From a virus (lineage: Duplodnaviria; Caudoviricetes), in the IMG/VR virus record IMGVR_UViG_3300036770_005357: DNA of 64,000 nucleotides. The stretch is one strand, 5' to 3'. This document shows, in pieces, positions 31,554-35,424 of the stretch. A program made the position numbers and the translations under genes. Under the pieces are notes generated by a model, which saw nothing but the letters and a program-made list of their open reading frames with translations, ran no database searches and was not told where the DNA came from. Position 1 is the first letter of the stretch, and the number at the start of each line of letters is the position of its first letter.

Positions 31554-31641
31554 TGGTGGGCAAGGTGGGATTTGAACCCACAGCGTTTCTAATGTAAGGG
31601 ATTTTAAGTCCCTCGTGTTTCTCCAGTTTCACCACTTGCCC
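31554..31641 (-). tRNA. tRNA-Leu(TAA)
   Basis: Full cloverleaf; AGGGA-CT TAA AA-TCCCT; long variable arm; CCA encoded. Confidence 0.93.
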
Positions 31642-32899: not shown

Positions 32900-32904
32900 T
32901 TGTA

Positions 32905-32946
32905 TGGTGGGTATGGAGGGAGTCGAACCCCCATGCCTTTCGGCGG
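32905..32946 (-). pseudogene. 3' half of a class II (Leu-type) tRNA
   Basis: Variable arm GCC-GAAA-GGC, T-arm GGGGG-TTCGACT-CCCTC and CATACCC-A-CCA; no matching 5' half seen. Confidence 0.7.
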
Positions 32947-32954
32947 TTTTATAA

Positions 32955-33031
32955 TGGTAGCTAGGGTCAGATTCGAACTGACACTGGACCGATTTTGAGT
33001 CGGGTGCCTCCTGCCGTTGGGCTACCTAGCC
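32955..33031 (-). tRNA. tRNA-Leu(CAA), short variable loop
   Basis: Cloverleaf with loop CT CAA AA, T-loop TTCGAAT, A73, CCA. Confidence 0.9.
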
Positions 33032-33045
33032 ATTAAAATTAAAAA

Positions 33046-33138
33046 TGGTGGTCCTGTCAGGTAACGCTCCTGATTCTTACGCTAGTCCGGCGATTAACTG
33101 TGTTATAAGCACAGCGGCTTTCTTTAAGCTACAGGACC
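33046..33138 (-). tRNA. tRNA-Ile(TAT), atypical
   Basis: GGTCCTG/CAGGACC acceptor; CTGTG-CT TAT AA-CACAG; 24-nt variable region; T-loop AGCGTTA; CCA. Confidence 0.8.
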
Positions 33139-33178
33139 ATTTTAAAATTTTTAAAGAACTATCAACTTCTATGTAATA

Positions 33179-33206
33179 ACTATACCATGTTCTTTTTAAG
33201 AGTCAA
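33179..33206 (-). promoter_or_regulatory. Sigma70-type promoter
   Basis: TTGACT-N16-TATAGT with TG extension. Confidence 0.7.
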
Positions 33207-33276
33207 CCGAAATTTTTGGTTTCGGGTTAAATATTTAAAATTCGATTTTTGAGTTTTATTTATATATTTATATTAT

Positions 33277-33951
33277 ATGACTTTTTTATTTACTGACAAA
33301 GATTTCGAAAATGCTAAATCACATGACAAGTTGAATCTTAAATGTAAAAATTGTAACGGAACATTTTCTTCTACCAAGAAAGCGATTAATTTTGAATTAA
33401 AACATAAAAGAGGTAGATTACAATTTTGTACAAAAAAATGTTTTGATGATAAACAAACTAATAAAAATCCTGTTAATTGTAAACAATGTAATAAAATAGT
33501 TTTAAAAATACCTAGTCAACTTAAAAGGTCTCCGAATACATTTTGTTCTTCTTCTTGTTCCGCAACTTATAATAATACACATAAAAAATTTGGTACTAGA
33601 AGATCTAAATTAGAAAAATGGTTGGAAGAAAAATTGATTCAGTTACATCCGAATTTAGTTTTTCACTTTAATCGTAAAGACACTATCAACGCCGAATTAG
33701 ACATTTATATACCATCTTTAAAGTTAGCATTCGAGTTAAATGGAATATTTCATTACGAACCAATATATGGAGAAGAAAAACTACATTCAACTCAAAATAA
33801 TGATAAAAGAAAATTCCAAGCGTGTTTAGAACAAAAAATTGAACTTTGTATTATAGATGTTTCCAAAGAAACATATTTTAAAGAACATATATCAAAAAAA
33901 TATTTAGATATTATAAATAATATAATAAATTCTAAATTGTTGAATTCTTAG
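33277..33951 (+). mobile_element. Free-standing zinc-ribbon + PD-(D/E)xK/Vsr-like putative homing endonuclease
   Basis: Repeated CxxC motifs, then RSKLE...ELDIYIPSLKLAFELNGIFHY; inserted antisense within the tRNA operon. Confidence 0.78.
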
Positions 33952-34009
33952 TTACAGATATTAACTGTATGCAATAGTCACTGCGTGCAAGTGATTCAAC
34001 TTGACTATC
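33939..34009 (-). ncRNA. HDV-like (theta-type) self-cleaving ribozyme at the 3' end of tRNA-Met
   Basis: P1 GATAGTC/GACTATT with a G.U first pair; P2 GTTGAA-TC/GA-A-TTCAAC; P3 ACT/AGT; L3 TGCACGC; P1.1 GC/GC; P4 TACAG/CTGTA; J4/2 ACTAA. Confidence 0.85.
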
Positions 34010-34084
34010 TTGCAGCTACAGGAGTCGAACCTGCTATCGCCTGGTTATGAGCCAGGAATGATATTTCCGTTTCACTCAGCTGCG
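34010..34084 (-). tRNA. tRNA-Met(CAT), initiator-like, CCA not encoded
   Basis: C1xA72 mismatch; CCTGG-CT CAT AA-CCAGG; T-loop TTCGACT; ends at discriminator A73. Confidence 0.88.
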
Positions 34085-34282
34085 ATTGAAAATTTAAAAG
34101 AACTAAAATTGTAAATTGGTGTTGGGTATTTTTATTGAATACTTAATTACCCAACGAATCAAGTATACCATGAACTAACCCCGCAACCAAGAAATTTTTA
34201 AGAGAATTTCCAACTCTGGGAGTTTTTGGTTATATACTCCTCCACCAGTCAGTTTTGAATTTGGATGTCTGACAACCAAAAG

Positions 34283-34357
34283 TGGCAGTCCTGCGGAGAT
34301 TCGCACTCCGGTCTCTTGGATGAAAGCCAAGAATCCTAACTACTAGACGACAGGACC
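34283..34357 (-). tRNA. tRNA-Glu(TTC)
   Basis: CTTGG-CT TTC AT-CCAAG; T-loop TGCGAAT; G73; CCA. Confidence 0.92.
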
Positions 34358-34367
34358 ATTTAAAGCG

Positions 34368-34510
34368 AACTGGTAACCCGATTCGGTTTTTTACGAACCG
34401 GTTTCCTACTGTCTTTAGGCGGATGATTTATGTTTTCTCTTCTCACGTCAAGCGGTTATACAATAGACAGTGTATAACTTTTTGTCATCCTCTCTAGATA
34501 ATTACCAGTT
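34368..34510 (-). ncRNA. Unassigned multi-stem RNA with predicted kissing loops
   Basis: 9-bp closing stem and four internal helices; loops CTGTCTAT and AAGACAG are complementary over 6 nt. Confidence 0.65.
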
Positions 34511-34515
34511 TAAAT

Positions 34516-34590
34516 TGGTAGGGCGCCACGGTAACGATCCGTGTTCTACTGGTTAAAAGCCAGTTGCTTCACCGTTAAAGCTTGCACCCC
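34516..34590 (-). tRNA. tRNA-Lys(TTT)
   Basis: ACTGG-CT TTT AA-CCAGT; T-loop ATCGTTA; CCA. Confidence 0.92.
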
Positions 34591-34598
34591 ATTAAAAA

Positions 34599-34611
34599 TG
34601 TTAAAGAACTA
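34599..34611 (-). promoter_or_regulatory. boxA-like antitermination element
   Basis: TAGTTCTTTAACA directly upstream of tRNA-Lys. Confidence 0.6.
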
Positions 34612-34762
34612 AACTTACAGAAACCGTGTAACTTTTGTATCCCTAAAGTTACAGAAAAGGGTCAGACTCACACTGAGGTGATAAGTTGTTTTTTCGTTAA
34701 ACTTATAACAATCGGTTGAGTTTTTAGTTTTCGGTATCGGACTCAACTAACCTTATGTAATC

Positions 34763-34790
34763 ATCTTACCAGAACTTTTCGTTTTGTCAA
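34763..34790 (-). promoter_or_regulatory. Sigma70-type promoter
   Basis: TTGACA-N16-TAAGAT with TG extension. Confidence 0.7.
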
Positions 34791-34916
34791 CCGTCTTTTT
34801 TCTTTTTCTTTTTGGCGATCCCCTTTGATAGAAGGTCAAGGCGATTCCTGCACACTTAGATGCTCTGGAGGAGTGCTACTCCCGCCATGCTAGAAAAAGA
34901 ACTTACTATACTTATT

Positions 34917-34944
34917 ATCCTACCACAAACTTTTCAAAGATCAA
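34917..34944 (-). promoter_or_regulatory. Sigma70-type promoter
   Basis: TTGATC-N16-TAGGAT with TG extension. Confidence 0.55.
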
Positions 34945-34995
34945 GTATTTTTTGTAGTTATAAATATATAAATGTTCAAAAAAATACTTGTAAAA

Positions 34996-35077
34996 ATGGC
35001 GCTTCGGGAGGGATTTGAACCCACATTTACATCCAATTATGCACTTAGAGCTTAGAAGACTCCGCCATTACCGAAGC
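34996..35077 (-). tRNA. tRNA-Arg(TCT)-like gene lacking the D-arm
   Basis: GCTTCGG/CCGAAGC acceptor, G73, CCA; only 7 nt between acceptor and anticodon stems; loop CT TCT AA; 22-nt variable region. Confidence 0.65.
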
Positions 35078-35094
35078 ACGATCACTTATTGAAA

Positions 35095-35424
35095 TTACTG
35101 CTTATCCTTCTTTAGTTCATCTTGTACTGACTTACCCAGTTCTGTCAAGCCAAAAAGTGGCTCTCCATTCTTATCATAACCAACAATCTGTACAAGTCCT
35201 TGCTTGACAAGATCATCCACAGTTTCCTTAACCTCCATAAGAGAAGCCTCTTCATAGATTTCATTGGCTTCAGCTTCGTCACAACCAGTTTCCTTCATAA
35301 TGTACTCAATGGCAGATTGTCGTTCACACTGCTTATCCAGCTCATCTACATTAAGATTTGCGCAATGGTTAAGCACTTGATCAATTGTACCGGTAAACAT
35401 ACCACCGTGTTCAGAAAATTCCAT
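35095..35424 (-). CDS. Hypothetical protein (winged-helix-like C-terminus)
   Basis: 109 aa; LVKQGLVQIVG...LTELGK pattern. Confidence 0.65.
   Translation of the reverse strand: MEFSEHGGMFTGTIDQVLNHCANLNVDELDKQCERQSAIEYIMKETGCDEAEANEIYEEASLMEVKETVDDLVKQGLVQIVGYDKNGEPLFGLTELGKSVQDELKKDKQ

Follow-up and report, generated by a model that had tools for sequence, protein, structure and literature searches.

HDV-like ribozymes cut 5′ of the first base of their P1 helix (PMC10879173). Those associated with tRNAs have been described as theta ribozymes, minimal HDV-like ribozymes of gut Caudoviricetes (Kienbeck et al., 2024, PMC10879173), four of which were shown to be active; their authors deliberately shortened L4 to define this minimal form (PMC10879173). 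Among the tRNAs linked to theta ribozymes 95.5% lack an encoded CCA and 4.5% carry one, tRNA-Met is one of the three commonest partners, and a DRB0094-family ligase is found in 54.5% of theta-ribozyme phage genomes, a 140-fold enrichment (PMC10879173). An example row reads, segment by segment, GAAUAGC, AA, AUGAGAA, ACC, U, CC, ACGU, GGU, GCUAUUC, GG, GUAACG, CUAA and UUCUCAU (PMC10879173). In our literature search that paper was the only report found of tRNA-linked HDV-like ribozymes, and the published account is limited to gut phages and to the P4-less form.

Two other systems are relevant here. Classical HDV-like ribozymes with a P4 helix (HDV, CPEB3, drz; RF00094) take part in the processing of genomes or retrotransposons. 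Free-standing homing endonucleases of the T4 Seg/Mob type reside in phage tRNA arrays, and endonucleases are also known in partnership with introns. The locus described below lies in a 64,000-nt stretch (the window) of the IMG/VR virus record IMGVR_UViG_3300036770_005357, for which an initial annotation, made from the letters alone, had proposed a theta-type ribozyme behind a tRNA-Met gene.

A predicted theta-type ribozyme directly behind tRNA-Met

The record is a linear virus of 173 kb with 32% G+C and an estimated completeness of 73%. Because ORFs of the window match phage virion, baseplate/tail-lysozyme and terminase PHROGs, it represents a large tailed phage. Near-identical DNA was found in subsurface, freshwater, aquatic and marine metagenomes of 11 studies, none of them gut, and no RNA run was among the matches listed in the sequencing-run search for such DNA. 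Homologs of its nucleotide-sugar epimerase were found in a Flavobacteriaceae MAG and in many marine archaea, a mix that speaks neither for nor against the PVC host suggested in the initial annotation.

When the minus strand was read again, the letters and all of the coordinates quoted in the initial annotation proved exact, and every element of the complete nested double pseudoknot that it had described (7-bp P1, P2, 3-bp P3, 7-nt L3 and P4) was present between 34009 and 33939 (Table 1). The segments follow one another as P1-P2-P3-L3-P3′-P1′-P1.1-P4-J4/2-P2′, the order that defines HDV-like ribozymes (drz), and the J4/2 cytosine and the G1.U wobble at the base of P1 that go with this class are both found at 33939-34009. 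P2 comprises 8 bp with A33946 bulged or, alternatively, 7 bp. The discriminator A73 was located relative to the T-loop TTCGACT, which is followed by five nucleotides of T-stem, seven of acceptor strand and then A73 itself; the next base, G34009, is G+1 of the ribozyme. Two details of the earlier description needed adjustment. C33951 had been correctly picked out as the catalytic cytosine of J4/2, but by the convention of the published rows it is the first rather than the second base of that segment, and the A before it is a P4 flank. The GC/GC P1.1, which had been presented as a compensatory version, is a real pairing but not a special one, as GC/GC occurs in several published theta rows. Judged by its sequence, the element is very probably a theta-type HDV-like self-cleaving ribozyme that makes the 3′ end of the phage tRNA-Met.

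Table 1. Positions of the ribozyme segments, neighbouring genes and related ORFs (window coordinates unless a locus is named).
Feature	Position	Strand	Details	Basis
tRNA-Met(CAU)	34010..34084	-	C1xA72 mismatch, A73, no encoded CCA	Rfam RF00005 44.1 bits; ARAGORN; 3′ flank
Predicted scissile bond	34009..34010	-	A73 (34010) / G+1 (34009)	HDV-like cut rule (PMC10879173); +1 placement in relatives
Predicted HDV-like ribozyme	33939..34009	-	71 nt: P1, J1/2, P2, P3, L3, P1.1, P4, J4/2	descriptor match and covariation
P1, 5′ strand	34003..34009	-	GAUAGUC; partner GACUAUU 33979-33973; 7 bp, G1.U wobble	sequence read, descriptor, covariation
J1/2	between P1 and P2 5′ strands	-	AA	sequence read
P2, 5′ strand	33993..34000	-	GUUGAAUC; partners AUUCAAC 33945-33939 and G33947, A33946 bulged	descriptor, covariation
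P3 and L3	33980..33992	-	ACU/AGU (3 bp) around L3 UGCACGC (33989-33983)	sequence read, published rows, covariation
P1.1		-	G33988-C33971 and C33987-G33972 (two L3 bases paired)	sequence read, published rows, covariation
L4 with P4	33952..33970	-	19 nt: A33970, hairpin UACAG-7nt-CUGUA (5 bp), A33952	descriptor, fold, relatives
J4/2	33948..33951	-	CUAA; C33951 = C75-equivalent, predicted catalytic cytosine	position and letters as in published theta rows
Homing-endonuclease-like ORF	33277..33951	+	224 aa, antisense to tRNA array	PHROG HNH/homing endonuclease families
Insertion (endonuclease cassette)	33162..33931	.	~770 bp, absent in near-identical L027	blastn break points
tRNA-like genes with CCA straight after the discriminator	31557-31641, 32958-33031, 33046-33138, 34286-34357, 34519-34590, 35000-35077
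Ribozyme-linked endonuclease ORFs	window 33277-33951; L024:973-1647; L025:534-1250; L132:932-1606; L133:424-1092; L137:1201-1890; L143:1001-1675; L145:1001-1684

The claim that the tRNA-Met is the only CCA-less tRNA was borne out: among the tRNA-like genes checked in the window, each of the other six encodes CCA. A corresponding gene without the ribozyme was available from the related phage L019, the only one of five loci from a protein-anchored search for relatives that reaches the tRNA array. There the orthologous tRNA, which shares the acceptor arm UGCGGGU...ACCCGCU-A and has an odd T-arm, carries an encoded CCA and no ribozyme; encoded CCA and ribozyme are thus alternatives at one gene. 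Three CAU tRNA-like genes of this relative (L019:12860-13115), the ortholog being one of them, were not called by ARAGORN.

The tRNA had also been termed initiator-like. In favor of this, it combines the anticodon CAU and A73 with a 1:72 position that is not a Watson-Crick pair (C1xA72), and orthologs in L001, L019 and L033 have U1xU72 there (read from the flanks). The other initiator hallmarks, three G-C pairs at 29-31:39-41 together with A11:U24, are absent: the anticodon stem holds two of the three G-C pairs (U29-A41, G30-C40, G31-C39), relatives have fewer, and 11:24 is U-A as in elongators. We therefore consider initiator-like a fair description of how the gene looks, while its identity as an initiator is not supported as such.

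Two of the other tRNA-like genes are irregular. The minus-strand gene at 33046-33138 is an aberrant 93-nt "Ile(UAU)" without a normal T-arm, and the 78-nt minus-strand element at 35000-35077 scores 29.9 bits, just reaching the Rfam threshold, and was not called by ARAGORN; both encode CCA. The six regular tRNA genes (the weak one at 35000 excluded) each have an A/T motif of 5-7 nt ending in AAT directly before the 5′ end (TTTAAAT, TTTTAAT or TTTCAAT; e.g., 34085-34091 and 34358-34364), which may represent a shared 5′-leader or RNase P context.

Comparison with theta and classical HDV-like ribozymes

The window ribozyme shares with theta ribozymes the order and the lengths of P1, J1/2, P2, P3, L3 and P1.1. 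J1/2 is AA, and L3 follows the frame U-NN-NCGY (here U, GC, ACGC), with a P1.1 that complements its second and third bases. J4/2 reads CUAA and begins with the catalytic C, in keeping with the C-N-R-A core letters. Both the GC/GC P1.1 and the ACU/AGU P3 are present in the accessible part of the published rows. [quoted passage not shown] The genome also carries a DRB0094-family ligase; this RNA ligase of 335 aa has an N-terminal OB module and scores 179.5 bits against TIGR02306. Its gene lies near one for an ATP-dependent DNA ligase, separated from it by a single 87-aa ORF (G000:C1:17767-20150; L016:1012-3395).

Several features set the locus apart from theta ribozymes. The element does not fit the minimal theta form: its 19-nt L4 contains a 5-bp P4 hairpin, whereas L4 spans 5-8 nt in the accessible part of the published rows. 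Since the theta authors shortened L4, the published descriptor probably misses the window element. The phage derives from subsurface, freshwater and marine sources rather than from the mammalian gut, the source of the theta-ribozyme Caudoviricetes with their Bacteroidota or Bacillota hosts, its genome uses the standard code with no suppressor tRNA called by ARAGORN, and the 3′ end of the ribozyme is overlapped by an antisense homing-endonuclease ORF.

The double pseudoknot with P4, the G1.U wobble, the J4/2 cytosine and the 2-bp P1.1 are equally those of classical HDV-like ribozymes. Unlike these, the window element is much shorter, has core letters that follow the theta consensus, matches no Rfam HDV-family model and has a predicted role in forming a tRNA 3′ end. 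Together, the P4-bearing subfamily, its aquatic and subsurface habitat and the endonuclease TAG antisense to the catalytic CUA look new, while the GC/GC P1.1 and the association with tRNA-Met are already published.

Relatives conserve the pairing and the exact position behind the tRNA

Exact and half-degenerate ribozyme patterns run against IMG/VR recovered only L001 in addition to 14 random matches. L001 is a close relative, a syntenic phage with ~60-70% protein identity. Its tRNA is ~77% identical to that of the window, with compensatory changes in the stems, and its ribozyme is 96% identical, the changes being confined to one extra A in J1/2 and two in the P4 loop; the similarity stops a few bases past P2. 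A scan of metagenomes with P3-L3-P3′, P1.1 and CUAA held fixed gave 20 matches, seven of which were true relatives. In two of these relatives, L025 and L033, the sequences of P1, P2 and P4 are different and all still paired. GenBank phages searched by blastn and megablast matched only the tRNA part or nothing. Contigs of four other metagenome runs gave a qualitative picture with patchy cover: among the differences listed (there are 93 further) one fell in the ribozyme, in the P4 loop, and many more in the flanks.

When eight sequences were aligned, all 139 cells (100%) paired and two-sided changes were seen at 11 of the 20 pairs; in P2, 7/8 pairs covary. None of 500 shuffles reached this result, and when partners were shifted by 1-3 columns only 27-42% paired. 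Five more ribozymes were found through the neighbouring endonuclease protein, independent of any ribozyme pattern. As MAFFT had misaligned P1 and P4 of the diverged members, the resulting 12 ribozymes were parsed by script in one fixed register. Across these 12 distinct sequences 99.1% of 228 cells in P1, P2, P3 and P1.1 pair and 15 of 19 pairs are changed on both sides (maxima in 1000 shuffles: 90.4% paired and 10 two-sided pairs), although part of this pairing statistic is due to selection, because the patterns fixed P3, L3, P1.1 and CUAA or the acceptance descriptor required pairing.

All seven positions of P1 vary among the relatives, six of them through two-sided changes, and swaps of UA for CG in P3 and of GC for UA in P1.1 were also seen. 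In each lineage P4 forms a hairpin of 4-7 bp between A...A flanks but has a different sequence. The G1.U wobble occurs in the window and in 10/12 relatives, with A1-U in two, and the equivalent of C33951 is kept in 12/12, in searches that required or favoured CUAA. The position of the element behind N73 is a marker independent of the pairing-based selection: in all 12 relatives the +1 base lies exactly 13 nt (5+7+1) past the T-loop, directly behind N73, and none of the pattern matches that failed the pairing test lies behind a tRNA-like 3′ end. [quoted passage not shown]

A second IMG/VR pattern, ACCTGCACGTGGT-N6-YGCA, which stands for the version with an ACC/GGU P3, L3 UGCACGU and a GC P1.1, returned 44 matches (L146-L188). 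Complete P1 and P2 pairing was found in 39 of them, which are complete HDV-like ribozymes, all with an L4 of P4 length (14-30 nt). A tRNA T-arm immediately precedes 30 of the 39, the first base is A (paired to U) rather than G in about half, and many are located on contigs of 100-357 kb.

The genes in front of the ribozymes were not always ordinary tRNA genes. In three relatives (L024:828-913, L026 and L132:1666-1751) an 86-nt CAU tRNA with a long extra arm precedes a near-identical ribozyme and replaces the 75-nt form. In another case, L025:104-546 (contig Ga0315905_10085372), the upstream gene is a tmRNA (Rfam RF00023, 99.8 bits, G3:U70 acceptor) with discriminator A478 and no CCA, and a ribozyme of the same subfamily starts at base 479. 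This ribozyme is overlapped by an endonuclease ORF 51% identical to that of the window. Our literature search found no report linking HDV-like ribozymes with tmRNA genes or tmRNA 3′ ends.

An endonuclease ORF ends on the antisense of the catalytic triplet

The final 13 nt of the endonuclease-like ORF lie inside the ribozyme: its last codons, K-L-L-N-S, are antisense to P2′, and on the opposite strand its TAG stop (33949-33951) reads as the CUA of J4/2. The ORF had no Pfam match, and a protein identical to its product is encoded on a 305-kb contig. The initial annotation had the ribozyme retained despite the overlapping stop codon, which understates the case, as the overlap is a conserved arrangement. 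In 8/8 ribozyme-linked endonuclease loci the stop is a TAG antisense to CUA and the last codons are antisense to P2′/J4/2. The proteins have diverged (79% identity to the window's in L024, 51% in L025), and the gene upstream varies between tRNA-Met, long-arm CAU tRNA and tmRNA, with an uncalled tRNA-like 3′ end in L145. Because the same arrangement recurs at diverged ribozyme-linked loci, it is not an accident of this genome. We found no published case of an endonuclease ORF that terminates within a ribozyme, opposite its catalytic triplet.

The relative L027 is 98% identical to the window over the tRNA and the ribozyme and lacks 33162-33931; since it is otherwise near-identical, the cassette represents a recent gain or loss. 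Endonucleases of the T4 Seg/Mob type offer a parallel: as with them, the window ORF has entered between conserved genes and is present in some near-identical strains and absent in others, and most of the sampled loci have the gene antisense within a tRNA array. Unlike them, it ends within a ribozyme.

These observations bear on an alternative in which the ribozyme is mainly part of a mobile endonuclease cassette, both moving to tRNA-like 3′ ends and replacing the CCA and trailer. The ribozyme would then restore the exact 3′ end, as a self-splicing intron excuses its endonuclease, and the chemistry would be the same while origin and beneficiary would differ. The TAG/CUA overlap is constant in all eight loci despite differing P1, P2, P4 and upstream gene, the break point of the polymorphic cassette falls only 7 nt past the P2 end of the ribozyme, and L025 shares with this phage genome nothing but the endonuclease gene, with a tblastx match that extends into the ribozyme overlap; all of this speaks for such a cassette. 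However, five relatives have the ribozyme without an endonuclease (L001/L037, L023, L026, L027, L033), and the 39 further P4-type ribozymes in IMG/VR were found irrespective of one. Conversely, the ribozyme is missing from 15 of the 23 endonuclease loci sampled; most of these genes lie antisense in tRNA arrays, and their stops are mostly TAA or TGA. On the endonuclease tree, which is mostly unresolved, the ribozyme-linked rows do not group (5 changes; 53 of 500 shuffles were as low). We consider it improbable that the ribozyme belongs mainly to the endonuclease.

It is also possible, if still rather unlikely in our view, that ribozyme and endonuclease form one overlapping mobile module that spreads between viral genomes to tRNA-like 3′ ends. 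The ribozyme might in this case be carried along so that the invaded gene, whether tRNA-Met, long-arm CAU tRNA or tmRNA, keeps its exact 3′ end. If true, such a module would parallel the intron/homing-endonuclease partnership, with a ribozyme in the place of the intron. Alternatively, the endonuclease may have come to lie beside ribozymes on repeated occasions. Through the recurrent overlap with the endonuclease stop, a connection between a selfish DNA element and a self-cleaving ribozyme becomes open to testing.

Inactive structure and chance as explanations

The element could also be a relic that has lost its activity, or a spacer with a structure of its own (such as a signal at which host RNases process or terminate the RNA), and be merely HDV-like in its fold. 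The covariance-model check that had been suggested for the locus came out negative, in that no Rfam HDV family matched at the gathering score, nor at E<=10 on 33850-34120, pseudoknots being outside such models. The nested MFE fold of the 71 nt was likewise unexceptional, no better than that of shuffles at z = -0.35, in a type of fold in which pseudoknots cannot be scored. While both results would suit a relic or spacer, the compensatory changes in P1, P2, P3, P1.1 and P4, the strictly kept letters of the catalytic core and the base-exact placement in 12/12 relatives argue against it. In addition, no terminator-like site was found on the minus strand in the region scanned (32900-35200), and a CCA-less tRNA needs a precise cut. 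An inactive structure is therefore very improbable.

A check with descriptors of HDV-like ribozymes had also been suggested and gave a single match. With helices only, the loose descriptor matched at one place in the window, compared with 0.27 matches per dinucleotide-shuffled window. The strict descriptor, which adds the conserved letters U...CGY of L3 and C-N-R-A of J4/2, matched once in the window, once in the entire 173-kb record and in 0 of 291 dinucleotide shuffles, and its sole match begins on the single base directly behind a tRNA. A chance match of a permissive descriptor in AT-rich DNA, which the loose rate might suggest, is scarcely credible beside the strict result, and it is effectively refuted by the conserved relatives in at least 11 studies and several habitats.

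A proposed route to the tRNA 3′ end

For the theta-type ribozyme at the end of tRNA-Met, we infer the following course of events. The tRNA array would be transcribed from the minus strand, and the 71 nt behind A73 would fold co-transcriptionally into the double pseudoknot described above. The 2′-OH of A73 would then attack the bond to G+1, catalysed by C33951 together with a Mg2+ ion that L3 and the G1.U wobble keep in place. This would release a tRNA that ends at the discriminator A73 with a 2′,3′-cyclic phosphate, and the ribozyme would remain, with a 5′-OH at 34009, on the downstream RNA that is antisense to the endonuclease gene. The cyclic phosphate would finally be removed and CCA added. 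Both of these steps would most likely be carried out by host enzymes, because no CCA-adding enzyme, PNK, kinase/phosphatase, AAA_33 kinase, 2H phosphoesterase or HD domain was found in the 173-kb record (estimated 73% complete). Cyclic-phosphodiesterase activity is a property of class II CCA-adding enzymes that contain an HD domain.

The window locus and its relatives show that large phages of groundwater, lakes and the sea have the same device, with a P4; in one case it stands behind a tmRNA. Given these aquatic P4-bearing relatives, viruses probably use ribozymes as a general means of forming the 3′ ends of tRNA-like RNAs, and the published descriptor undercounts such cases. A short, fast-folding 3′-end cassette of this kind would also be practical for producing exact RNA 3′ ends.

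At the far end of the endonuclease cassette, toward the next tRNA, the minus strand carries a promoter-like site at 33206-33179 (TTGACT-16-TATAGT with TG). Although this is a consensus match of a kind common in AT-rich DNA, the site could restart transcription of the next tRNAs.
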